Part shown: one piece after another, positions 1 to 37,874 of the stretch | Layout: the number at the start of each line of letters is the position of its first letter | How positions within the stretch are numbered: the first letter of the stretch is position 1 | Notes under the pieces: generated by a model | What the model was told of the DNA's origin: nothing | Seen by the model: the letters and a program-made list of their open reading frames with translations, nothing else | Databases searched by the model: none | Source: a virus | Length of the DNA: 64,000 nucleotides | IMG/VR virus record: IMGVR_UViG_3300045988_122441 | Reading direction: 5' to 3' (one strand) | Made by a program: the position numbers and the translations under genes

Positions 1-1
1 A

Positions 2-748
2 AATATGGAATGGAGAAATACACATGAAATCACATGGAAATTTGAGAGAGAAGAGGAACTTTCGACACTGATTTATGTTACAAGACATCTGAGAAATATG
101 CCATGTATACAGGAAATTTGCCTTAATCTGTTATATCTTCCAAATGCAAGAATGGATCGTATCCATAACCATAAAGAGGTATTCACATTAAGAGGCTTTG
201 CAGACGCAATCAACTGGCTTCGGTTTGATGTGGTGAGAGTCCTTGACGTACATAGTAACGTAGGAGCCGCACTTCTGAATAATGTACTTGTGTGTACACC
301 AGAGAAGTATTTAAAAGAAGTAATAGATCAGATAGATGAGACCGTACCGTTAGTTTTATATTTCCCAGACGAGGGAGCAGCGAAAAGATATTCAGGTTTA
401 TTACCGGGTATGAAGTATTGCTACGGAGAGAAGAAAAGAGATTGGGAGACAGGGAAAATTCTTGGACTGGCTATCAAGACAAACGGTATTGACCTACAAA
501 AGCAGACTGTATTGATGGTAGACGATATTATAGCTTATGGAGGTTCCTTATATTACAGTGCGAAAGAGTTGAAACGCATGGGAGCTGATACAATTTATGC
601 TTATGCCACACATACGGAAAACTCAATTCTCGATAAAGAAAAAGGAACATTGATTAAGTTGCTGGAGGACAATACGGTAGAAAGATTATTTACAACAGGA
701 AGTCTGTTCATTGGAGAACATGATAAGATTACAGTTTTGGAGGTGTAA
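2..748 (+). CDS. Ribose-phosphate pyrophosphokinase (Prs)-like enzyme, 5'-partial at window edge; candidate ADPR-pyrophosphate synthetase (Adps) of a NARP1-type pair
   Basis: The frame is open to the window edge. PRTase loop 'VLMVDDIIAYGGSL' is present, and 'YLPNARMDR' resembles Prs 'YFGYARQDR'. About 50-70 N-terminal residues of a normal Prs seem to lie upstream. The stop lies 3 nt before the NAMPT-like gene. Confidence 0.7.
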   Translation, partial: NMEWRNTHEITWKFEREEELSTLIYVTRHLRNMPCIQEICLNLLYLPNARMDRIHNHKEVFTLRGFADAINWLRFDVVRVLDVHSNVGAALLNNVLVCTPEKYLKEVIDQIDETVPLVLYFPDEGAAKRYSGLLPGMKYCYGEKKRDWETGKILGLAIKTNGIDLQKQTVLMVDDIIAYGGSLYYSAKELKRMGADTIYAYATHTENSILDKEKGTLIKLLEDNTVERLFTTGSLFIGEHDKITVLEV

Positions 749-751
749 GAA

Positions 752-2215
752 ATGGATAGCACAATGGCTTTATTGTTATCAGATACATATAAACAGTGTC
801 ATGACCGGATGTATCCGCAGGGATTGACTAAATTGGTTTCATACTGGGTTCCGAGAAGATCTATGCTCAAGAAGCAGGATAAGATGGTTTTCTTTGGTTT
901 GCAGGCATTTATTAAAGAGTATTTGATGGGATATTTTCAGACCAGTTTCTTCGATATTGACGAGGAAGAAATTGTTAAGCAGTACACTGATACGATGAAC
1001 GTACAGATTGGAGCCAGTAATTATGATGTGGATAAGATCGTACAGTTGCATCGCCTCGGATATCTTCCGTTGGAAATCAGAGCACTTCCAGAAGGAACGC
1101 TTGTTACAATGGGAATCCCATGCATTGAAATCACAAACACTAAAGAAGACTTTGCATGGCTCGTGCAGTGGATCGAATGTATTTTACAGGTAGAACTGTG
1201 GAAGCCTTGCTGTCACGCAACAATCGGTCATATGTACAGAAATATTGCAGACTATTGGTATAACAAGACAACCGATGGTCTGGACGGAGCAATGGCTTGT
1301 GCAGATTTCGGGATGAGAGGAATGTCATGTATGGATGAAGCGGTAAGATGCTCTGCTGCATGGCTGCTGTCATTCAACAAAACATCTACAATTCCGGCGA
1401 TTTCATATATTGATAAATATTACAATGCAGATTGTAAAAATAAGGGGATTGGTCTTGGAGCAGTATCCACAGAGCATAGCGTCATGGGTGCGAATTTCTC
1501 AATCGACGGCGATGAAATCACATTCGTCAAAAGGCTGCTTACTGAATTATATCCAGATACATCATTCAGTATGGTTTCAGACACATATGATTACTGGAAT
1601 ATGGTAAACAACATCCTGCCTCAGTGTAGAGATGAGATTATGAACCATAACGGAAAACTTTTAGTCCGACCGGACAGCGGAGATATCGTGGAAATCTCAG
1701 TTAAAACAGTTGAAAGATTGTGGGAAATTTTCGGAGGAACTGAAAACTCCAAAGGGTATAAGGTGTTAGATCCTCATATCGGAATCATTTACGGAGATGG
1801 ATGTACATTATCCAATGTCGAAACTATCTGGAAAGAACTTGAGAAACGTGGATTTGCTGCGAATAACATTGCATATGGAGTTGGGGCATTTTGCTTTACA
1901 GCAATCGTAGAAGATGGAAAACTTGTGGTTGCTACCAGAGATACATTTGGCATCGCAATGAAGGCGACATACGGTGTTATTAACGGTAAAAAACTGATGA
2001 TCTATAAAGACCCGAAGACAGACACAAGCCATTTAAAGAAATCGCATAAAGGTTGTTGCCGAGTATACAAAGAAGATGGACAGCTGAAGTGCCAGGATCA
2101 GCTGTCGGAGATGAGCGATGATAGCTTGCTCACAACAGTTTTCAAGGATGGTAAGCTTGTTAAAGAGGAGTCGTTTATGGATATTAGAGAAAGGATGTAT
2201 GGAGTAAATGATTAA
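752..2215 (+). CDS. Nicotinamide phosphoribosyltransferase (NAMPT/NadV) family protein; candidate nicotinamide ADPR-transferase (Namat)
   Basis: 487 aa. N-terminal 'LLLSDTYKQCH' matches the NAMPT 'TDSYK..H' signature, and length is typical of type II PRTases. A GGAGG SD lies 7 nt upstream. Confidence 0.85.
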   Translation: MDSTMALLLSDTYKQCHDRMYPQGLTKLVSYWVPRRSMLKKQDKMVFFGLQAFIKEYLMGYFQTSFFDIDEEEIVKQYTDTMNVQIGASNYDVDKIVQLHRLGYLPLEIRALPEGTLVTMGIPCIEITNTKEDFAWLVQWIECILQVELWKPCCHATIGHMYRNIADYWYNKTTDGLDGAMACADFGMRGMSCMDEAVRCSAAWLLSFNKTSTIPAISYIDKYYNADCKNKGIGLGAVSTEHSVMGANFSIDGDEITFVKRLLTELYPDTSFSMVSDTYDYWNMVNNILPQCRDEIMNHNGKLLVRPDSGDIVEISVKTVERLWEIFGGTENSKGYKVLDPHIGIIYGDGCTLSNVETIWKELEKRGFAANNIAYGVGAFCFTAIVEDGKLVVATRDTFGIAMKATYGVINGKKLMIYKDPKTDTSHLKKSHKGCCRVYKEDGQLKCQDQLSEMSDDSLLTTVFKDGKLVKEESFMDIRERMYGVND

Positions 2216-2669
2216 AATTATTGACGGCGATTTACTTGCATCCAAAACAGATATTATTGCACACCAGGTTAATTGCAAAGGTGCTTTTAACTCTGGTGTT
2301 GCAAGGGCAATACGGGAATATGATGTTCAGGTTTTCCATGATTATCGTGCGTACTGCTACAGTAAAACGGCAGATGATCTTATAGGAGATGTGAGATATT
2401 TCCAATCAGATATGGATGACAAAATATACGCAAACCTATTTGCTCAGAAATCTTATGGATATGATGGCAAACAATATACAGATTTGGAAGCGTTGAAAAA
2501 GTGCTTTGAAAATCTTCGGGACTATGTAATGGAGAGGAATATGAGTATTGCAATGCCTTATAAGATTGGAAGCGTTAGAGGAGGCGCAAACTGGGAAGAT
2601 GTTTATGCTTTAATTGAAACTACATTTCGAGAAGTAAATGTAGAATTATGGAGGCTTGATAAAGGATGA
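2208..2669 (+). CDS. Macro-domain protein (ADP-ribose binding/hydrolase)
   Basis: 153 aa. 'IIDGDLL..DIIAHQVNCKGAFNSGVARAI' fits the macro-domain N-terminal pocket pattern. Overlaps the upstream gene by 8 nt. Confidence 0.8.
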   Translation: MIKIIDGDLLASKTDIIAHQVNCKGAFNSGVARAIREYDVQVFHDYRAYCYSKTADDLIGDVRYFQSDMDDKIYANLFAQKSYGYDGKQYTDLEALKKCFENLRDYVMERNMSIAMPYKIGSVRGGANWEDVYALIETTFREVNVELWRLDKG

Positions 2670-3082
2670 TAAGTGCGTTTAGAGGAAAATATTATTTTTT
2701 AAGCAATTTTTATGCAGCTCCTGTGGTGTGGGACGGTGTTTCTTATAAGAATAATGAAGCTGCGTTTCAATCTGCTAAAGTAGGAAGAGAGTACAGGCAG
2801 GAATTTGCAGAACTAACCGCTTCAGAAGCTAAGAAATTAGGCAGGAAGGTTCCGCTTAGACCAGACTGGGAGAACGTTAAGGAAAGAATTATGTACGAGA
2901 TTTGCCTTGCTAAATTCTCTCAGAATGAAGAACTCAAAGAAAAATTACTTTTAACAGGAGAATGTGCCTTAGAAGAATGTAATACATGGGGTGACAAAGT
3001 CTGGGGAACGGTTAATGGTGAAGGAGAAAACAAACTTGGAAAGATTCTGATGAAAATACGGGAGGAACTGAGACATGAGTAA
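2666..3082 (+). CDS. NADAR (YbiA/DUF1768) family protein
   Basis: 'FRGKYYFLSNFY', 'YKNNEAAFQSAK' and C-terminal 'WGDKVWG..NKLGKILMKIR' are NADAR hallmarks. ATGA overlap with the macro gene. Confidence 0.8.
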   Translation: MISAFRGKYYFLSNFYAAPVVWDGVSYKNNEAAFQSAKVGREYRQEFAELTASEAKKLGRKVPLRPDWENVKERIMYEICLAKFSQNEELKEKLLLTGECALEECNTWGDKVWGTVNGEGENKLGKILMKIREELRHE

Positions 3083-3821
3083 ATTTAATGCAAAGGCAGT
3101 AAAAGATGACATCGTAAAATGGATTAGAGAATTCTTTGAGCAGAATGGTAAAGGATGTAGTGCTGTAGTCGGGATCTCCGGAGGAAAGGATTCCAGTGTG
3201 GTTGCAGCTCTGTGCGTAGAGGCTCTCGGCAAAGATAGGGTTTTCGGAGTGCTTATGCCGAATGGGGAGCAAGTTGATATTGAAGCATCGTATTCTCTGG
3301 TAAAGCATCTCGGGATTGACTATTGTGTGGTTAATATTCATGAAGCAATTCGATCACTGAAACATGAAATTAAACCACAGCTCGGAGACCATTGGTCTAT
3401 GCAGACTTCTATAAATCTTCCGGCAAGAATCAGAATGGCTACATTATATGCAGTATCTCAGACGATTGGTGGAAGAGTTGCCAATACATGTAATTTATCA
3501 GAGGACTGGGTTGGTTATGCCACCAGATATGGAGATGGAGCCGGAGATTTCAGTCCGTTATCTAAACTCACGGTAACAGAGGTTAAAGCGATCGGACGAG
3601 AGCTTGGTCTTCCAGAAGAGTTAATTGAAAAGGTTCCTACGGACGGTCTGTGTGGTCATACGGACGAAGACAATCTCGGATTCACGTATGTAGTTCTTGA
3701 TAGATACATTAGAACTGGTGAAATCGATGATATGCATACAAAAGAAAGAATTGATACTATGCATGAAAAGAACCTATTCAAACTGAAGCCTATGCCAACA
3801 TTTGAATACGAAGCGGCATAA
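3075..3821 (+). CDS. nadE: NH3-dependent NAD+ synthetase
   Basis: PP-loop 'GISGGKDSSVVAAL', 'RYGDGAGDFSPL', 248 aa. Confidence 0.9.
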   Translation: MSKFNAKAVKDDIVKWIREFFEQNGKGCSAVVGISGGKDSSVVAALCVEALGKDRVFGVLMPNGEQVDIEASYSLVKHLGIDYCVVNIHEAIRSLKHEIKPQLGDHWSMQTSINLPARIRMATLYAVSQTIGGRVANTCNLSEDWVGYATRYGDGAGDFSPLSKLTVTEVKAIGRELGLPEELIEKVPTDGLCGHTDEDNLGFTYVVLDRYIRTGEIDDMHTKERIDTMHEKNLFKLKPMPTFEYEAA

Positions 3822-3842: not shown

Positions 3843-4313
3843 ATGTTAGTCCCAGCTGCGCTATATAAGGATGAAATTATCAAAAATTTTAAGAAGCGAT
3901 ATTACACAGAAGACATGATGTATGAAACCGGATGTTTAGAGCAATGGTATCCGAATATTAAGGATATGCCAAGCGAGGGAGAATTTGATTATGCGATTGT
4001 GTGTTGTGATAAGCTAATTGGATATCTTTCTTACAAAGTAGACTACTATTGCTCAAAAGTATATAATTTTGGACTTATGTCATTCGAGAGTGGCAACCCG
4101 ATTATAGGAAGAGATTTGTTCAATAAAATGGAGGAGCTAGTACATCGGTTCCACAGAATTGAATGGAGAATGGTGGGAGGCAATCCGGTTGAGAAGCATT
4201 ATGATAAGTTTTGTGAAAGATATAATGGTAACAAGTATTTCTTAAAAGATGCGATTAGAGATCGAAATGGGAATTACCACGACGACATTATTTATGAAAT
4301 TGTAAATGAATAA
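3843..4313 (+). CDS. Hypothetical protein, possible GNAT-fold acetyltransferase
   Basis: 156 aa. 'IEWRMVGGNPVEKHYDKFCERYNG' resembles the GNAT motif A/B region. The assignment is weak. Confidence 0.4.
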   Translation: MLVPAALYKDEIIKNFKKRYYTEDMMYETGCLEQWYPNIKDMPSEGEFDYAIVCCDKLIGYLSYKVDYYCSKVYNFGLMSFESGNPIIGRDLFNKMEELVHRFHRIEWRMVGGNPVEKHYDKFCERYNGNKYFLKDAIRDRNGNYHDDIIYEIVNE

Positions 4314-4323
4314 AGGAGAAATT

Positions 4324-5183
4324 ATGGATACATCAGCACTTGCGAAAAGAATGAAAAAGTATGAAGCAGTGCCGAAAAATACGTTAATGAGAAGAACGCC
4401 CGTAATCATCAGAGTTGATGGTCGGGCGTTTCATACTTTTACAAAAGGATTTCAGAAGCCTTTTGATGACGTATTGGTGCGGGTAATGCAGGATACGATG
4501 AAGTATTTATGTGAGAATATACAGGATGTGTGTTTGGATATACGCAGTCCGATGAAATTACACTAATTCTCATAGATTATAAGAAGCTTAATTCAGAAGC
4601 TTGGTTTGCTTATGAGGTGCAGAAAATGTGTAGCATTGTGGCAAGTATGGCTACAATGGCATTCAATAGATTTTTCATGTATGAGTATGAAGAATTCAAT
4701 AGATGGATTTACGAAGGAAGTCCAACAGATGAAGACAAGCGACTAAATGATGTCTATTACAATGCGATGTGTCAAGGAGCAATGTTTGATGCCAGAGTCT
4801 TCAATATTCCAAAAGAAGAAGTTACGAACAATATTTATTGGAGACAGCTTGACGCAAGTAGAAACTCAATTCAGATGCTCGGACAGGCAAATTTTAGCCA
4901 CAGAGAGTTACTGAATAAGACATGTAACCAAATACAGGATATGTTGATGACGCAGCATGGAATTAACTGGAATGACATGGGTACATCTTATAAACGAGGC
5001 AGTTGCTGTGTAAGAAACAGGCGAGTTATCAGCACATCTGCCGACGGTACAGTAACATGTGAAATCAGGAATCCAAAAGAGCCTGAAACAGCGTGGGTTA
5101 TCGACAATGAAATTCCGATTTTCAAAGGAGAAGGCAGAAAATACATCGACGAGCTGATATTTATTGGAGGTGTTGAGATTTGA
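4324..5183 (+). pseudogene. Thg1-like protein (tRNA-His guanylyltransferase / 3'-5' polymerase family), frame broken near 4524
   Basis: ORF 4306..4566 carries 'IIRVDGRAFHTFTKGF.KPFD'. ORF 4530..5183 carries 'GYTQSDEITL'. The two frames join if one nt (a G near 4524-4526) is restored, giving ..CENIQ-GCVFGYTQSDE. The SD-supported start is the ATG at 4324. Confidence 0.75.
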
Positions 5184-27895: not shown

Positions 27896-27981
27896 AAGTT
27901 TGCAGTTGTATTTTTGCGTAAAATAGTGTAATGTATATGTGTAAGTTGATGCTGTAGTCAATATAGAAAGGAATATTGATT

Positions 27982-29178
27982 ATGGGAAGAGACTTAAATG
28001 GTAAAGAACTGGGCAGAGGATTTAGTCAGAGAAAGGACGGTAGATACGAAGCCAGAGCCGTTATATGCGGCACAAAAATAGATATTTATGACATGAATCT
28101 AGCAAAGCTGAAAAAGGAATTTGAAGCTGAGAAAGCTAGAGTGTTACGAGACGAAAAGAATGTAAGACCTAACGTCACGTTTGGAGAGTGGTATCAGGAA
28201 TGGTTTGAAAAGTGTAAATCACCTCAGTTAAAATCTGATGTAAGCAGAAAGACGTATGACAGAAAAGTAAGAAATACCTACTGTAAAATTCTCGGAGAGA
28301 AACGAATGGAAAATATCTCTCAGATGAATATGCAGGCTGCTACAACAGAGTTGATTGAGAAAGGATATACAGACCGTTCTGTAAGAGAAGCTCTCGGAAT
28401 TGTGAACGAATGTATGGAGATTGCTATTGTAAACCACATCATCAATGTAAATCCATGCGTAGGAATTAAAATCCAGAATGCAAACGAGCGTAAAGAAAGA
28501 AGAGTTATGAAGCAGTGGGAACAGGACTTATTCTTGAACGAGGTCAAGGATAGATATTACTACGAAGCGTACAAGATTCTTCTTCTAACTGGAATGAGAA
28601 TCGGAGAGTTCTCTGGGTTGCAATGGCGAGATGTTGACTTCGAGAATAAAGTCATCAATATTAATAGATCCATGCAGACCGCATATATTGACGGAAGAAA
28701 GATCGAGGAACTTACTACACCGAAAACAGCCAACTCATACAGAGCAATCCCGTTCTTTGGAGAAACAGAAGCTTGTTTGAAGAGCTGGAAGAAGAAGCAG
28801 GACGAGTATAAGAAACGTCTGGGTGACAGATGGAGAGCAAGACCTGAGTTAGGCGATCTTGTTTTTACAAGCACTGTAGGCTCGCCTGTGACTCGATATG
28901 TCATTGTACATGACATAGACAAAGTAGTCCAGAACATCAATCTCAAAGAGATGACAAAGGCATTCAGAGAGCACAGAGAGCCAGTGATGTTTGAACACTT
29001 ACATCCACATGCTTTTCGCCACACATTTGCAACACGTTGTTTTGAAAAAGGGCTTGACCCATTGTTTGTACAGAGTATAATGGGACATGCCAATTATGCA
29101 ACTACGGTGTCATATACACATATATTAGACGATTTGCGTCAGAAAGAGGTGCAGAAGGTTGGTAACTTCTTAGAGTAA
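27982..29178 (+). CDS. int: Tyrosine integrase
   Basis: 'LLLTGMRIGEFSGLQWRDVDF' and 'HPHAFRHTFATRCF...GHANYATTVSYTH' supply the R..HxxR..Y residues. ATG at 27982 lies 2 codons inside the track TTG. Confidence 0.92.
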   Translation: MGRDLNGKELGRGFSQRKDGRYEARAVICGTKIDIYDMNLAKLKKEFEAEKARVLRDEKNVRPNVTFGEWYQEWFEKCKSPQLKSDVSRKTYDRKVRNTYCKILGEKRMENISQMNMQAATTELIEKGYTDRSVREALGIVNECMEIAIVNHIINVNPCVGIKIQNANERKERRVMKQWEQDLFLNEVKDRYYYEAYKILLLTGMRIGEFSGLQWRDVDFENKVININRSMQTAYIDGRKIEELTTPKTANSYRAIPFFGETEACLKSWKKKQDEYKKRLGDRWRARPELGDLVFTSTVGSPVTRYVIVHDIDKVVQNINLKEMTKAFREHREPVMFEHLHPHAFRHTFATRCFEKGLDPLFVQSIMGHANYATTVSYTHILDDLRQKEVQKVGNFLE

Positions 29179-29582
29179 GAGAGTTGCGTAAACCTTACAT
29201 TGCGTCGAGATTGAAGAATCCGCGATACAGTAAGCTCGAAAAGAGTTGCGTAAAAGTTGCGTAGATAGCAGAATTTAATCTCCGTAAGCCCTTGAAATAC
29301 AAGGAGTTAAGAAAATACTTCGCAATTCAGATGGGAATGTAAGTACCTCAGCAAACTAAATCGTATAAGCCTTATAATTACTTGAAATTCAATGACTTGC
29401 AGAAGGCTTGTGTCTAATATGTGGTTTGAGTAACTATCATAAAGTATCGTATTTTAAGGAAAAATATCATATGGTTTTGCGTCAAAGTTGAGTAGCGAAT
29501 TGCGTAAGATAAATTTTGATTATCTTCAGCGAAGTTTACGCAAAATGATGGGTTACAGTATCAATTTACACATATACATTAC
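29179..29582. other. attP region with arm-type repeats
   Basis: ORF-free 0.5 kb next to int. TTGCGTAA/TTGCGT(C/A)(G/A) copies at 29184, 29200, 29246, 29257, 29477 and 29500. A degenerate copy (TTGAGTAG) at 29488, an inverted copy at 29536-29543, and one more at 27914 upstream of int. Confidence 0.6.
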
Positions 29583-29613
29583 GGGGTGGGTGAAAGCCTG
29601 CCCCTTTCTTTTT
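29583..29613 (+). terminator. Rho-independent terminator (+)
   Basis: GGGGTGGG/CCTGCCCC stem followed by TTTCTTTTT. The sequence is related to the 27659 terminator. Confidence 0.55.
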
Positions 29614-29654
29614 GAGAAAAAGAAGGCAGACTGGTAAATCAAACCAGTCTGCCT
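29611..29654 (-). terminator. Terminator of the minus-strand late operon (bidirectional hairpin)
   Basis: 12-bp stem AGGCAGACTGGT/ACCAGTCTGCCT (29624-29654). On the minus strand it is followed by TTCTTTTTCTC. Confidence 0.7.
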
Positions 29655-29687
29655 ATATTTATATACACACTCACAATTTGTTACATA

Positions 29688-29972
29688 TTACTTTTCTGCT
29701 CTTAACAGCGTCACGTCGATATCGGAAGTATCGGTATCAGCGTCTGTGTTAGTGTATGCAGTAGCGTCAATCGTATAGTCAACGACTCTTACGATAATGA
29801 AGTCGCTTTTAGCATACCCCTCTTCATTGAGCATCTTTTCAACTCTTTTATCCAAAGCTTCTTTGGAACCGAGTTCAAGCGGAATTACCTCACCGTCAAT
29901 ATTTGTTGTCAAATATTTATACAGCGTTTCGTAGTTATCACGCTTAGCCTGAGCAATCATAATTCTATACAT
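29688..29972 (-). CDS. Hypothetical acidic protein (last gene of late operon)
   Basis: ATG at 29972 lies 9 nt after GGAGG; the track TTG at 29978 is too close to the SD. Confidence 0.5.
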   Translation of the reverse strand: MYRIMIAQAKRDNYETLYKYLTTNIDGEVIPLELGSKEALDKRVEKMLNEEGYAKSDFIIVRVVDYTIDATAYTNTDADTDTSDIDVTLLRAEK

Positions 29973-29989
29973 TCTCAAGCACCTCCTGT

Positions 29990-30505
29990 TTAATGCTTTG
30001 TCTTAGCTTTTGCGTTCTTCACGTATGTAGCAGTACCGTCAAATTTGTGCTTATACTGTTCCGGCGGCTGTTTCGGCAATGCACGTATTTCGTCCATAAG
30101 ACCTTCCACGAATGAGTTGCCATGCTCATGCTGATAGATTAAGAATCTACGCTCTAAGCATTCCATAGAGTAGTCATCAATCCAGCCCTGCTCATATACA
30201 AAGAAATGATGACGTTCTGTTACATAAGCTTTGATACTTTCCTTGTCAGACTCAATCAGCATAGTAATACTATCATTGATCTTGTCTACAGAATCATTTG
30301 TATCTTCCTTAGCTTCCTTCAGCTCGTCTACATCTTCTTTAATCGTGTCAATCTCTTCTCGTTCGTCATGGTCTTTATCATAGTATTTGCGGACACGATC
30401 ACAAGCCCAGTCGATAAAAGACACTACTCCCTTAACAGCAAGACACAGAATTACTGTGTACATGATAATATCTGTGGGAGAATAGTTTGTAAGTAATTTT
30501 TCCAT
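29990..30505 (-). CDS. Membrane-anchored coiled-coil protein (BhlA/holin-like N-terminus)
   Basis: Single TM 'IIMYTVILCLAVKGVVSFI' followed by an acidic coiled coil. The ATG at 30505 has a GGAGGG SD. Confidence 0.45.
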   Translation of the reverse strand: MEKLLTNYSPTDIIMYTVILCLAVKGVVSFIDWACDRVRKYYDKDHDEREEIDTIKEDVDELKEAKEDTNDSVDKINDSITMLIESDKESIKAYVTERHHFFVYEQGWIDDYSMECLERRFLIYQHEHGNSFVEGLMDEIRALPKQPPEQYKHKFDGTATYVKNAKAKTKH

Positions 30506-30530
30506 ATTTCCCTCCAAAAGTTACATGCCG

Positions 30531-34563: not shown

Positions 34564-34836
34564 TTAAATTAATGCGCTCAGCTCAATAATGCACTGTTTC
34601 ATTTTTTCTGCTTCTGTCATTTCGCGGATAATGAATCTAGTATGACCATCCTCGCTCCAAATGTTTGTACAGGTCATATCCTTATAATCAACACCGCCAA
34701 TATTTACACTGGATAAATTGGCATCAGACAGAATCTCAATATTAACTTCATCATCTGTGATGTAGTTGTTGCCATTCAGTGTAGCGTGAATCTCTGTTCC
34801 GTTTGCGAGGATAATATTGTAAATAGTATTTTCCAT
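34564..34836 (-). CDS. Hypothetical protein
   Basis: 90 aa. GGAGG lies 8 nt upstream. Its start sits inside the last 86 nt of the RT ORF. Confidence 0.5.
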   Translation of the reverse strand: MENTIYNIILANGTEIHATLNGNNYITDDEVNIEILSDANLSSVNIGGVDYKDMTCTNIWSEDGHTRFIIREMTEAEKMKQCIIELSALI

Positions 34837-36064
34837 CTATAAAACCTCCAAATAAGTCGTAGTAAAGAAGATTTAAGTTGTCACGTTGTATCTTACTCAT
34901 TAAGTATGCATGACCGCCAATCCAGGAACGAAACATATTCTCTATTTCTTCCTGTGTGCGTTCGCCTCTTTGTACTTTTCTACTCAATGCTTTGAGCTTA
35001 CGTCTCATATCAACAATTCTCTGTGGGTTGATTTTCCTTATCACTCTTCCTGTATCAGTGAGAGAGTAGGATATCTGCAGAAAGCGATAGTAGTCTGATA
35101 GCTTTACTATTCTTGTTTTCTTTCTGTTCAACGTCATTCCGAGTTCTGTTGCTTTAGCTGCAATCTTAGCTTCAAGTTCAATCAGATACTCTTTGCTCTG
35201 GGAAATCACATAGCTGTCATCCATATATCTGCCGTAGAATTTCTGACCTTCAACGATCTTGACGAAATTATCTATCTGAGTTGGATAGTATATGCCGATA
35301 ATCTGGGAACACTGATCTCCGATATTTACAGATTTCCTCATGAATTTCTCGCCTGTATGAGCAGATTTTGGAACGTTCAGTCTGTAGTCAGCAGAATTGA
35401 ATGGCGTTTCCATACAATGTTCATATTCCTCGTCTGTCATATACGAGACATCAATCTTAAAATTATCGAATATTAAATCCAATAACCACAGCGAAAATTC
35501 ATCATGCACATGTTTTGCAATTTCTTGATAAGCAATATCATGCGGTATATTGTCATAGAATTTGCTGTAATCCATTAAAAGTATGTAGCCGTCATTCCCG
35601 TACAGCCGATAGTATTTGTGTAGATGCTCCTCGAATCTTTGTCTGCTAAAAGTAATTCCTTTCCCTTTCAGCGACGCTCCGTTATCATAAATTAGATAGG
35701 AGAGCAGACTCGGAGCCAAAATATTATCACAAAGAGAATGGCGGATAACCCTGTCAGACATCTGTAAACCTGTAATAGGTCGTGTTTTGCCACGCTCACT
35801 GATAATAAACTCAGTAGAAGCTTTTGACTGATATGCCCTGTCTTTTAAAGCAGCTTTACTCTTAACGATATGTGGCAAGAAATTCATTTCATATTTCTGC
35901 ACTTGAGGTTTCCAATCGGAATCTTTCTTTGCAGCCAAATATGCATGATAAAGTGAGTTTAAATTATATACAACATGACACCCATCTTCAAAATGTGTGT
36001 TTGTATCTGTCATTTCTTTCCAAAATATTTGACGTGTATAGCAATCAGTCGTAACGAATTGCAT
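34751..36064 (-). CDS. DGR reverse transcriptase
   Basis: RT motif 'GRYMDDSYVIS' and the DGR-specific 'NIGDQCSQIIG' ([I/L]GxxxSQ). Sits immediately 3' of the TR. Confidence 0.9.
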   Translation of the reverse strand: MQFVTTDCYTRQIFWKEMTDTNTHFEDGCHVVYNLNSLYHAYLAAKKDSDWKPQVQKYEMNFLPHIVKSKAALKDRAYQSKASTEFIISERGKTRPITGLQMSDRVIRHSLCDNILAPSLLSYLIYDNGASLKGKGITFSRQRFEEHLHKYYRLYGNDGYILLMDYSKFYDNIPHDIAYQEIAKHVHDEFSLWLLDLIFDNFKIDVSYMTDEEYEHCMETPFNSADYRLNVPKSAHTGEKFMRKSVNIGDQCSQIIGIYYPTQIDNFVKIVEGQKFYGRYMDDSYVISQSKEYLIELEAKIAAKATELGMTLNRKKTRIVKLSDYYRFLQISYSLTDTGRVIRKINPQRIVDMRRKLKALSRKVQRGERTQEEIENMFRSWIGGHAYLMSKIQRDNLNLLYYDLFGGFIDGKYYLQYYPRKRNRDSRYTEWQQLHHR

Positions 36065-36156
36065 CGCCTTTGTCTTTTAGCACATTCCTGTGCAAGGACA
36101 ATTTCTCCTTTCTTCGTTTCTTGTATCTGCATATAGCATAATTAAACAAGTGGAAG

Positions 36157-36273
36157 AAATCGGACGAACGCCATTAGAATTAGACGCGTTGTTGTTGTTC
36201 GCATTGCCGTTGTTGTTCACATTACAGAAGTTAGTCGCAGACCTCACACCACGCAGCCAATAGTTGAAGCGAC
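36157..36273 (-). repeat. DGR template repeat (TR)
   Basis: 117 nt aligning without gaps to 36956-37072. Asn-codon (AAC)-rich on the coding strand. Confidence 0.9.
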
Positions 36274-36314
36274 AAACGGCGCAAAACATGCAGAAATTGC
36301 CCTGATTAGTTTCC

Positions 36315-36869
36315 TTATGCTGTCACAGATTCTTTCTCTCTGTCTAAAATGCTTTTACGAATTTTGTTGTCAGATTTTCTCCAACCTTTGATTAGCACCT
36401 GTTCTTGCATAATCATATTTGTGATATTTTCATATTTCTCTATATTGACAGGCAGAGTAGTGATGATATACTGTAATTCCTGTATCAGGTTCTCGCAGTA
36501 ACCAAGAGCTAAGTCCTGATGTATTCTTCGTTCATCACACTCACTAATGAATTGCGGACATATTTCATTAGCTAGAAAAATTTCATGTACCATATCACGG
36601 GTAATTTGTATAATTGCTTTCTGCTCATCTGGTATAAACCATTCTACAAAAGCCTCGTATCGCTCTCTGCGTTTCTCTACGCCGCGATCATAACCATCTT
36701 TCTGTTTTTGACTCCACTTGTTGTATGCTTCCGGTTTTGGTCTTTCTTCATATTCCCTTAGTCCGAATTTTCTCAGAGCAAGGTCAGTTATAACCGTCCG
36801 AACTTTATACGCATGATGCTCAACCTCAAATGGTGATGGCTTTCTATTTGCTTTCAGTACCGACATCAT
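36315..36869 (-). CDS. DGR accessory variability determinant (Avd)-like helical protein
   Basis: Canonical position between VR and TR. Helical, basic, with a C-terminal 'LIKGWRKSD'. Confidence 0.65.
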   Translation of the reverse strand: MMSVLKANRKPSPFEVEHHAYKVRTVITDLALRKFGLREYEERPKPEAYNKWSQKQKDGYDRGVEKRRERYEAFVEWFIPDEQKAIIQITRDMVHEIFLANEICPQFISECDERRIHQDLALGYCENLIQELQYIITTLPVNIEKYENITNMIMQEQVLIKGWRKSDNKIRKSILDREKESVTA

Positions 36870-36883
36870 TTCCTCCGTATTAA

Positions 36884-36908
36884 CCCACCCACCCGGAGGT
36901 GGGATGGG
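36884..36908 (-). promoter_or_regulatory. GC-rich hairpin downstream of VR (candidate DGR target-recognition stem-loop)
   Basis: CCCACCCACC-CGGA-GGTGGGATGGG forms a stem of about 10 bp with one bulge and a 4-nt loop. It lies about 35 nt 3' of the target-gene stop. Confidence 0.45.
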
Positions 36909-36941
36909 ATTAAAGATATTGCATTGTATTTCTTGTCAATA

Positions 36942-37874
36942 TTAATTAACGAAGAAAAACGGACGAACGCCAAGAGAATTAGACGCGTCGTAGTTGCTCG
37001 CATCGCCGTAGCTGCCCACAAAACAGAAGCCAGTCGCAGACCCCACACCACGCAGCCAACAGGTGAAGCGACGGTGAATGTATTCAGGAGCGAGAGCGAA
37101 CAGTGGGAACTGAGAGTTGATACATCCAACTTCGTAACCGCTATTAGCCCATACTTTTGTTCCGTATACCATTGTCTCGGACATCAGCTCAACTTTACAG
37201 TCATACCAAGCCCATCCAGAAGCCTGTCCATCAGCAGTTGCGTTTGGCAGGATATCTCTGTAGGACATTACGTGAGAAGAACCGAAGTCATTCACGATTT
37301 TCTGAGTAGCCTGTGCAAGGTTTGTAGTTCTCATATCAGAGTTTGCGTATGCTCCAGTAGTAACGTTGTTTGCAGCGCCTTCTGTATACTGACCGCTATC
37401 TGTGTTATGCATCTGTGCATTGTACAGAGCAGAGTCAGGAACAAGGCACATGCAGTTACCGAGAGAAGACTTATCTCCAATCTGCTTTCCGAGGTTGAAT
37501 CCAGCAACTCGATATACAGTGCCGTTGATTGTCAGGTAATCACCTACAAACAGGTCGTCAAATGTACCTGCCTGAATAGCTTTTGACATAGCGGAGGTGT
37601 AGGAAGTACCTAAGTTCTTACCTCTGAAAATAGAGTTATGACCTCCTGCGTTGTTTCTTGCTGCACCTGTGTACAGCTCATTGATTGCGGCTGGGAGAGT
37701 TTTTGTACCCTGATCCAGACCATAAGTTTTGCTCATCAGCTTGTTAAGGGCGGCAGTGGAGAGATTTCCGAAAGTCACACCCTTAGTACCATTCGCACCG
37801 TCAACTGGGAGTACATCAGTATCAGCAACAGAAGTAACAGCGGAAAGGTCTTTAATTCTTGTTGTATTTGCCAT
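36942..37874 (-). CDS. DGR target protein: tail-fibre-tip / receptor-binding protein with C-terminal lectin-like VR
   Basis: The C-terminus 'CWLRGVGSATGFCFVGSYGDASNYDASNSLGVRP' parallels the TR-encoded 'YWLRGVRSATNFCNVNNNGNANNNNASNSNGVRP'. Follows the tail-fibre gene. Confidence 0.85.
   Translation of the reverse strand: MANTTRIKDLSAVTSVADTDVLPVDGANGTKGVTFGNLSTAALNKLMSKTYGLDQGTKTLPAAINELYTGAARNNAGGHNSIFRGKNLGTSYTSAMSKAIQAGTFDDLFVGDYLTINGTVYRVAGFNLGKQIGDKSSLGNCMCLVPDSALYNAQMHNTDSGQYTEGAANNVTTGAYANSDMRTTNLAQATQKIVNDFGSSHVMSYRDILPNATADGQASGWAWYDCKVELMSETMVYGTKVWANSGYEVGCINSQFPLFALAPEYIHRRFTCWLRGVGSATGFCFVGSYGDASNYDASNSLGVRPFFFVN
36956..37072 (-). repeat. DGR variable repeat (VR) in the 3' end of the target gene
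   Basis: By eye I count 18 mismatches to the TR. All lie at plus-strand T, i.e. coding-strand A, of the TR. Confidence 0.9.

Follow-up and report, generated by a model that had tools for sequence, protein, structure and literature searches.

How does a phage genome use five adjacent genes that act on nicotinamide adenine dinucleotide (NAD+) or ADP-ribose (ADPR)? Depletion of NAD+ is among the commonest bacterial antiviral strategies, and its reconstitution by phages is a young and fast-moving topic. The question is raised by the start of a 64,000-nucleotide stretch of DNA from the IMG/VR virus record IMGVR_UViG_3300045988_122441, which was analysed whole and is here called the window. An initial annotation had described five open reading frames (ORF1 to ORF5; Table 1) as a Prs-like and NAMPT-like pair followed by a Macro-domain protein, a NADAR-domain protein and NadE, and had likened the pair to NARP1, the phage combination of Adps and Namat (bioRxiv 10.1101/2024.02.11.579819; Namat structure, PMC12774641; Adps structure, PMC13586617). 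All five ORFs were found on the plus strand, and their family assignments hold. What they do together is another matter; we lean, with slightly better than even confidence, towards the view that the window opens inside a NARP1-family operon for counter-defence, in which the rebuilding of NAD+ has been rerouted via nicotinic acid.

From gene content, gene families, residue changes and co-occurrence we infer the substrates and products of the following route. Host immune NADases would split NAD+ into ADPR and nicotinamide; a nicotinamidase, PncA, would turn nicotinamide into nicotinic acid and ammonia (NH3); ORF1, as an Adps, would use ATP to convert ADPR into ADPR pyrophosphate (ADPR-PP); ORF2, in which the Asp that recognises the amide is replaced by Ser, would join nicotinic acid and ADPR-PP into nicotinic acid adenine dinucleotide (NaAD); and ORF5, a NadE, would form NAD+ from NaAD, NH3 and ATP. 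The NH3 released by PncA is what an NH3-dependent NadE consumes, a point of stoichiometry in favour of such a route. Interchangeable genes in a slot between ORF2 and NadE would enlarge the supply of ADPR: the Macro protein by dephosphorylating ADPR-1''-phosphate from aRES-type defence, as in NARP1-AP, and the NADAR protein by taking ADP-ribose off guanine in DNA, an anti-DarT1 activity that would release ADPR. If ORF2 does use ADPR-PP, the nicotinic acid mononucleotide (NaMN) and adenylyl transfer step of the Preiss-Handler pathway would be bypassed. The initial annotation had not considered nicotinic acid or NaAD; its NARP1-type pair survives our analysis, and the roles it gave to Macro, to NadE and to ORF2 as a canonical Namat find less support or are incomplete.

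ORF2 carries the base-specificity argument. It matches the profiles NAPRTase (5.8e-29), NAMPT_N (5.8e-11) and phrog_448 (3e-163), and its comparison with Namat and NadV favours Namat by sequence (9w5x, the best match in the PDB, at 386 bits, versus 321 for H. ducreyi NadV and 204 for human NAMPT) and by fold, an AlphaFold2 model (pLDDT 81) retrieving Namat at the top of a Foldseek search (E 4e-46, TM 0.85), then NadV and then NAMPT. The Nampt/Namat catalytic core is kept (D13, Y15, F189, R192, H245, R306, D308, G360 and D361). In SpbetaL1 Namat numbering, which we use for pocket and clamp residues, the pyridine pocket has Ser at position 215, where Namat has Asp, and Ser at the neighbouring position 242, where Namat has Ala. 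Asp215 of Namat hydrogen-bonds the amide of nicotinamide, and the D215A change lowers activity 8-fold (PMC12774641); human NAMPT D219S, the equivalent of Asp215Ser, is tabulated as substrate-switching (PMC4919578, Table 2). Across the whole ORF2 clade, position 215 is Ser or Ala. The switch in human D219S is said to go towards nicotinic acid.

The adenine clamp has changed as well. In Namat it comprises an SCH motif, GSX-phi-X-phi-X-phi-TRD, and an SCL loop whose third residue, Arg, Lys or Tyr, stacks on adenine (PMC12774641). The SCH clamp of ORF2 reads GAFCFTA[IVEDGKLVV]ATRD, with Phe392 kept, no aromatic at position 7 and a 9-residue insertion (in brackets) that AlphaFold2 predicts as a beta-hairpin at pLDDT ~65. 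At the SCL Arg40 position ORF2 has Met, followed by Leu; this residue is Arg in the lineage of phage record MT835544 and Lys in the recoded gut phage Phass-1. Early-branching Ser242 proteins, that of Phass-1 included, have the canonical 11-residue clamp, GAYTYQYVTRD. Since Asp215 and Ala242 are both replaced by Ser, the SCH clamp is interrupted and SCL has Met at position 40, ORF2, though Namat-derived, is by its residues not a canonical Namat.

We collected 383 loci. A Namat-like ORF was present in 376 of them; all but one of these allowed typing, and the resulting 375 were sorted by residues 215 and 242, with partner genes sought within 7 kb. The canonical pocket (Asp or Glu at 215, Ala at 242) occurs in 105 loci, 102 of them with an adjacent Adps, and neither NadE nor PncA is found in any (0 for each and 0 for both). 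Ser or Ala at 215 with Ser at 242 occurs in 270 loci, where NadE is present in 262, PncA in 262 and both in 254; each of the remaining 16 has one of the two genes, for which contig ends, which cut many of the loci, may account. Scans seeded with the Ser242 representatives P0138 and P0136 brought up nothing closely related to either (35-47% identity), mostly matches from sampled lineages and further canonical loci, of which the latter were used as extra controls. The association of PncA and NadE with the Ser242 pocket is strong, and it is stable over deep divergence and gene-order shuffling.

NadE is rare in phages: of 50,697 phage records 53 have it, compared with 2046 that have a Nampt/Namat-like gene. 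In two of the records with NadE the set is complete: MT835544, in the order Adps, Namat-like gene (54% identical to ORF2), Macro, NadE, PncA; and Phass-1, in the order PncA, Prs-like gene, Namat-like gene (33% identical), a 139-aa gene, NadE. The four-gene core is kept at 33-54% identity while gene order is shuffled and PncA stands at either end of the cluster. A megablast search with the first 8 kb of the window gave no match in the phage collection. The Ser242 type accounts for ~48 of 150 best representatives at 50% clustering, which makes it a large subfamily. In a tree rooted with H. ducreyi NadV, from which the two diagnostic columns were removed, the Ser242 proteins form one clade (bootstrap 36/100), and the hairpin insertion arises later than the early Ser242 branches, which keep the canonical clamp. 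Two separate Ser242 clades in a midpoint-rooted tree gave way to this NadV-rooted single clade; its support is weak, so we do not claim independent origins. Many Namat-like representatives (within P0122-P0270) are 570-1100 aa long and match ORF2 in two to four separate stretches, which suggests inteins or other inserted elements.

PncA itself lies outside the window. We took 10 kb of upstream sequence from six contigs encoding an identical ORF2, a protein whose exact sequence is indexed in 788 metagenome-collection blocks; the contigs with upstream sequence are 99.975% identical to the window in nucleotides over the first 4 kb, the part compared. The missing 5' end read from them supplied the first 28 codons of ORF1, 247 of whose 275 codons lie within the window and whose PHROG match begins at profile position 41, and revealed a 173-aa isochorismatase-family gene 4 nt further upstream. 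The NAD-related block is in this way one of six genes: PncA, ORF1, ORF2, Macro, NADAR and NadE. The added protein matches PF00857 at 9e-26 and, among solved structures, comes closest to the Pyrococcus horikoshii nicotinamidase 1im5 (E 8e-12), with which its Asp/Lys/Cys triad (D9, K93, C124) aligns; the metal site, Asp-x-His...His-Cys, is also kept, with D50, H52 and H69 aligned to 1im5. It scores far under the NCBIfam nicotinamidase equivalog cut-off.

At the other end of the block, ORF5 matches PF02540 NAD_synthase at 6e-55 and exceeds the cut-off of TIGR00552 (185 bits versus 64); its best PDB match is the P. horikoshii NadE 2e18 (2.5e-39) and its second the Francisella NadE 3fiu. We propose that ORF5 is an NH3-dependent NAD+ synthetase that would convert NaAD to NAD+ as the last step. 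NadE had been regarded as a generic top-up of NAD+; instead it is one of four genes in a conserved core, to which the nicotinamidase gene upstream also belongs.

For ORF1 the choice lies between Adps and Prs. It matches phrog_619 at 1.5e-51 and Pfam Pribosyltran only at threshold, and aligns with the genetically validated Adps of phage FADO at 113 bits (33% identity), compared with 40 bits for the best solved Prs. Every NCBIfam Prs cut-off lies above it (best model, 70.5 bits versus 296; TIGR01251, 63.8 versus 113). In an alignment with the ICP1 and FADO Adps proteins, ORF1 keeps F18, the acceptor residues R87, H121, D161, D212 and D213, and K185 (ICP1 numbering), residues that are mostly common to Prs too and do not discriminate alone. 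The PP loop, D-D-x-x-D-T-G-G-T in canonical Prs, reads DDIIAYGGSL in ORF1, DDLSSYGGTF in FADO and DDICDGAASF in ICP1. Full-length ORF1 has 275 aa, compared with 280 in ICP1 Adps and 277 in FADO Adps, and the alignment ends coincide. Adps, whose structure has been characterised for ICP1 and in which Lys185 is essential and catalytic, is a Prs-like protein of ~280 aa without the C-terminal alpha11-alpha12 module of Prs (PMC13586617); judging from its length, ORF1 would lack that module too. On the bit scores for Adps and Prs, the sub-cut-off Prs models, the PP loop and the short length, ORF1 looks like an Adps, predicted to make ADPR-PP from ADPR and ATP, and not like a Prs, an identity that was rejected on the NCBIfam scores and the PP-loop comparison. 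Together with the best sequence and fold matches of ORF2 to Namat, these scores bear out the pair as one of the NARP1 type.

The Adps partner, the ADPR-yielding phosphatase, the intact clamp of the early branches and the lack of any visible adenylyltransferase family all favour ADPR-PP over phosphoribosyl pyrophosphate (PRPP) as the co-substrate of ORF2. The precomputed Pfam lists for ~74 kb of the ~150-kb genome, that is, the window and the 10 kb upstream of it, hold no NMN/NaMN adenylyltransferase (NMN, nicotinamide mononucleotide), cytidylyltransferase-like or NadR family, in agreement with the initial annotation, which had seen no NMN adenylyltransferase in the window.

What lies between the Namat-like gene and NadE differs even among close relatives. 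In the family of the window this slot is filled by Macro and NADAR in 37 loci, by a protein of 139-168 aa in 22 and by Macro only in 20, and it is empty in 2; NADAR is present in ~37 of 85 loci and, being absent from most related loci, is dispensable. ORF3, the Macro protein here, matches Pfam Macro at 5.7e-4, under the Pfam cut-off, and phrog_335, 'phosphatase', at 1.8e-34. It is 31% identical (E 6e-15) to the 'phosphatase' that Vibrio phage F88 encodes between Adps and Namat, with which it has the motif Q-x-x-Y-G-Y-D-G-K-x-Y in common. Its PDB matches are weak and fall in the DarG/TARG1/Poa1p clade (Poa1p 6lft, E 0.04), and its best NCBIfam match is DarG. Macro glycohydrolases of the DarG/TARG1 type have a catalytic Lys, K80 in DarG and K84 in TARG1; at this position ORF3 has Lys in one alignment and an invariant Gln in another, a shift of one residue, and the NARP1-associated macros have no conserved Lys there, only an invariant Gln or a variable residue. 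A DarG-type function was downgraded after the alignment with these macros. The Adpp of NARP1-AP is a macro protein that converts ADPR-1''-phosphate to ADPR (bioRxiv 10.64898/2026.01.28.702374), and ORF3 is probably a phosphatase of this type, as judged by comparison with the F88 protein; the protein that has been assayed is that of phage Gary.

ORF4 matches PF08719 at 7.5e-28 (98 bits versus a cut-off of 35) and TIGR02464 at 82 bits versus 74, and is closest to E. coli YbiA (2b3w, 4e-20). E. coli YbiA hydrolyses guanine-ADP-ribose in vitro, as does every NADAR/YbiA protein tested, and DarTG1 is overcome by phage NADARs (PMC11125620, PMC11825919); ORF4 is probably an AdfN-like guanine-ADP-ribose glycohydrolase. 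The initial annotation had both Macro and NADAR strip ADP-ribose marks, which would suit NADAR, given the anti-DarT1 factors among phage NADARs, better than Macro, whose family has no conserved Lys at the DarG position and which is likelier to be a small-molecule phosphatase. Its idea that ADPR-yielding enzymes adjoin NARP1 was reasonable, given the published NARP1-AP and the anti-DarT1 phage NADARs.

The 139-168 aa protein that replaces Macro and NADAR in other loci (among them positions 9576-9995 of contig L089 and 8466-8846 of contig L009) also occurs in Phass-1. Read by eye, it has a DFDDT motif typical of HAD phosphatases; a Pfam search with the 139-aa form gave no match. The same type is found in 16 of 79 canonical NARP1 loci, and this HAD-like protein may stand in for the Adpp phosphatase without being its homologue. 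The preprint on aRES and NARP1-AP (bioRxiv 10.64898/2026.01.28.702374) does not mention it.

How far could more familiar chemistry account for these loci? The operon might be an ordinary NARP1-AP that makes NAD+ directly from ADPR and nicotinamide, with Macro feeding in ADPR-1''-phosphate, PncA and NadE boosting the Preiss-Handler pathway of the host and the pocket Ser loosening base specificity. ORF1 and ORF2 are homologous to Adps and Namat and ORF3 to the NARP1-AP phosphatase, as this account expects; human D219S NAMPT reportedly still used nicotinamide, and PMC4919578 lists D219S only as a substrate switch. We nevertheless consider it unlikely: it leaves unexplained why PncA and NadE occur in 0 of 105 canonical loci and in nearly all Ser242 loci, a phage nicotinamidase would draw on the very nicotinamide that a nicotinamide-using Namat needs, and a boost to host salvage needs the PncB and NadD of the host, which the phage does not supply. 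Quite improbable, in our judgement, is a booster of the classical Preiss-Handler pathway, in which ORF1 would be a divergent Prs making PRPP, ORF2 would form NaMN, host NadD would convert this to NaAD and phage NadE would finish; the corollary that Macro and NADAR are independent anti-ADP-ribosylation factors seems to us improbable to the same degree. PncA, a nicotinate-using transferase and NadE would indeed make up three of the four classical steps, Namat keeps PRPP activity in vitro (PMC12774641), and the remodelled clamp with Met at Arg40 could mean that adenine recognition has been lost. Such a booster is at odds with an ORF1 that scores 64-70 bits against Prs cut-offs of 113-296 and has a FADO-type PP loop and the short Adps length of ~275 aa, with the intact Namat adenine clamp of early-branching Ser242 proteins, and with the Adpp-type or HAD-like phosphatase found within the operon in most loci.

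The initial annotation had proposed that Macro and NADAR strip ADP-ribose marks, that the resulting ADPR feeds a nicotinamide-using NARP1 and that NadE tops up the NAD+ pool, a scheme that we now find very doubtful. NADAR missing from most related loci speaks against it, as does an ORF3 much nearer to the NARP1-associated macro 'phosphatases' than to DarG and lacking a conserved catalytic Lys, and it leaves out both PncA and the altered pocket of ORF2; in its favour are the activity of tested NADAR/YbiA proteins on guanine-ADP-ribose, the defeat of DarTG1 by phage NADARs (PMC11125620, PMC11825919) and the DarG and TARG1 macrodomains among the nearest solved relatives of ORF3. NARP2 and NARP3, whose substrates differ, were rejected for want of any Nmnat, NadR or PnuC family in the ~74 kb. 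Each rival accounts for a smaller share of the data on residues and co-occurrence than the route through nicotinic acid and NaAD, which we prefer.

Several points weigh against this preference. The use of nicotinic acid and of ADPR-PP by ORF2 is read from its residues and relatives, and an adenylyltransferase could lie in the other ~80 kb of the phage genome. The Namat clamp is not intact in ORF2, which offers no clear counterpart of Tyr396 and has Met in place of SCL Arg40; this remodelling makes ADPR-PP use less secure in the family of the window than in the Phass-1 lineage, and it is the weakest link of the proposed route here. Francisella NadE, the second-best solved relative of ORF5, prefers NaMN. 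The co-occurrence could reflect one ancestral event and its inheritance, not repeated selection, and a few gut-phage lineages supply the bulk of the sampled loci. Finally, the phage would spend an extra ATP and would destroy nicotinamide, itself an NADase inhibitor, for no evident benefit.

Within the window the junctions from ORF1 to ORF5 are, in order, a gap of 3 nt and overlaps of 8, 4 and 8 nt, a close spacing consistent with translational coupling. The five genes are as tightly packed as first described; they do not form a closed unit, as the nicotinamidase gene precedes them and the co-directional array extends past position 3821 with a 156-aa gene, a Thg1-like gene and others. A promoter and terminator scan found none convincing within the array until ~8.9 kb, with counts at the level of shuffled sequence.

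Table 1. Positions of the NAD-related genes and of other features in the window
Feature	Position	Strand	Basis or remark
ORF1, Adps-like	5..748	+	ORF list; 3' part of gene, first 28 codons upstream of the window
ORF2, Namat-like, 487 aa	752..2215	+	ORF list, profile matches
ORF3, Macro-domain protein, 153 aa	2208..2669	+	ORF list, profile matches
ORF4, NADAR-domain protein, 138 aa	2666..3082	+	ORF list, profile matches
ORF5, NadE, short type, 248 aa	3075..3821	+	ORF list, profile matches
156-aa gene	3843-4313		phrog_30343; no Pfam or NCBIfam match
Thg1-like tRNA-His guanylyltransferase gene	4306-5183		broken into two ORFs
PemK-family toxin-like gene, 142 aa	9662-10090		beside an MrpR-like recombinase gene
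Integrase	27976..29178		
Integrase with adjoining lysis and structural block	27976-30517		
Diversity-generating retroelement	34751-37874	-	
Reverse transcriptase ORF	34751..36064	-	
Template repeat, 117 nt	36157-36273	-	
Variable repeat, 117 nt	36956-37072	-	at the 3' end of the 310-aa ORF
310-aa ORF	36942..37874	-	beside a tail-fibre-like gene

A gap of 21 nt separates NadE from the 156-aa gene, which has an 8-nt overlap with the Thg1-like gene. The latter is split by a 1-nt deletion near position 4523, relative to an otherwise identical contig with an intact 286-aa gene; truncated versions also occur on other contigs, and in Bacillus phage FADO a Thg1-like gene follows NARP1, ~2 kb downstream. 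Further upstream of PncA (positions 1-8628 of contig L003) are genes for a P-type cation ATPase, three TerD proteins, a YAcAr (SLOG) protein, an RlaP nucleotidyltransferase and a 271-aa tyrosine recombinase.

The element that carries the operon has structural genes of SPbeta-type families (YonD, YonB, YomW and YomU) and a replication block of DnaE, DnaB, DnaG and an anaerobic ribonucleotide reductase. Its relatives occur in genomes of Lachnospiraceae, Roseburia, Ruminococcus and other Clostridia, two isolates included, and related IMG/VR contigs are commonly 110-170 kb long; from these features it is classed as an SPbeta-like temperate phage that is widespread in gut Firmicutes. The integrase adjoins an oppositely oriented lysis and structural block, and the same block on another contig (positions 19820-21902 of contig L266) ends beside bacterial tsf and rpsB; the integrase abutting the block here and the bacterial flank there suggest that the window represents an SPbeta-like prophage in its excised or circular state. 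The early region has a gene for a PemK-family toxin-like protein. A diversity-generating retroelement is also present, in which all 18 mismatches between template and variable repeats fall at adenines of the copy proximal to the reverse transcriptase.

Among known systems, NARP1, NARP1-AP, RyDEP-fed NARP1, NARP2 and NARP3 have all been described. As in NARP1, adjacent phage genes encode a Prs-like and a Nampt-like protein, with Adps features in ORF1 and the catalytic core in ORF2, and the element, like the phage SpbetaL1 that served to define NARP1, is SPbeta-like; unlike NARP1, ORF2 has Ser215 and Ser242, the 9-residue clamp insertion and Met in SCL, and loci of the Ser242 type carry a nicotinamidase, NadE or both, compared with none of the 105 canonical loci. 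NARP1-AP likewise has a Poa1p/TARG1-like Macro gene in its operon, which here adjoins ORF2; it differs in that Macro follows the Namat-like gene here, compared with the order Adps, phosphatase, Namat in F88, in the addition of NADAR, NadE and PncA, and in the replacement of Macro by a HAD-like phosphatase, or by nothing, in sister phages. The proposed route would share with the Preiss-Handler pathway (PncA, PncB, NadD, NadE) the removal of the amide from nicotinamide, the assembly of a deamido dinucleotide and the return of the amide by NadE, and neither PncA nor NadE is unusual for its family; no gene of the PncB or NadD family is seen in the ~74 kb, however, and a transferase of Nampt/Namat ancestry is paired with Adps instead. 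ORF4 is a stand-alone phage NADAR domain like AdfN (PMC11825919) and YbiA-type NADARs (PMC11125620); unlike AdfN, it lies within an NAD+ reconstitution operon. NARP2 (Nampt and Nmnat) and NARP3 (PnuC and NadR; PMC13464706) are similar in being phage routes of NAD+ restoration against depletion immunity.

A literature search, which was not exhaustive, brought up no paper in which NAD+ reconstitution or Namat is connected to nicotinamidase, NadE or nicotinic acid, and the phAss-1 genome paper lists the Phass-1 genes without interpreting them. Chances are about even, in our estimation, that ORF2 founds a large Namat-derived subfamily with an undescribed reaction, nicotinic acid and ADPR-PP to NaAD, as part of a further pathway of NAD+ reconstitution with phage nicotinamidase, Adps and NadE, a 'deamidated NARP1'; that this pathway is widespread in Lachnospiraceae prophages and recoded gut phages, with a plug-in slot for ADPR-yielding enzymes, we hold to be just as finely balanced. 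If true, NAD metabolism would gain a new enzyme reaction, and NARP1 would prove to have been re-engineered in its base specificity. The two residues at 215 and 242 would then serve as a rule that separates both types of pathway in genome annotation, and the topic would widen from model phages to very abundant prophages of the human gut. It also raises the question of whether, in these hosts, a host nicotinamidase or a defence that removes nicotinamide defeats the canonical pathway.

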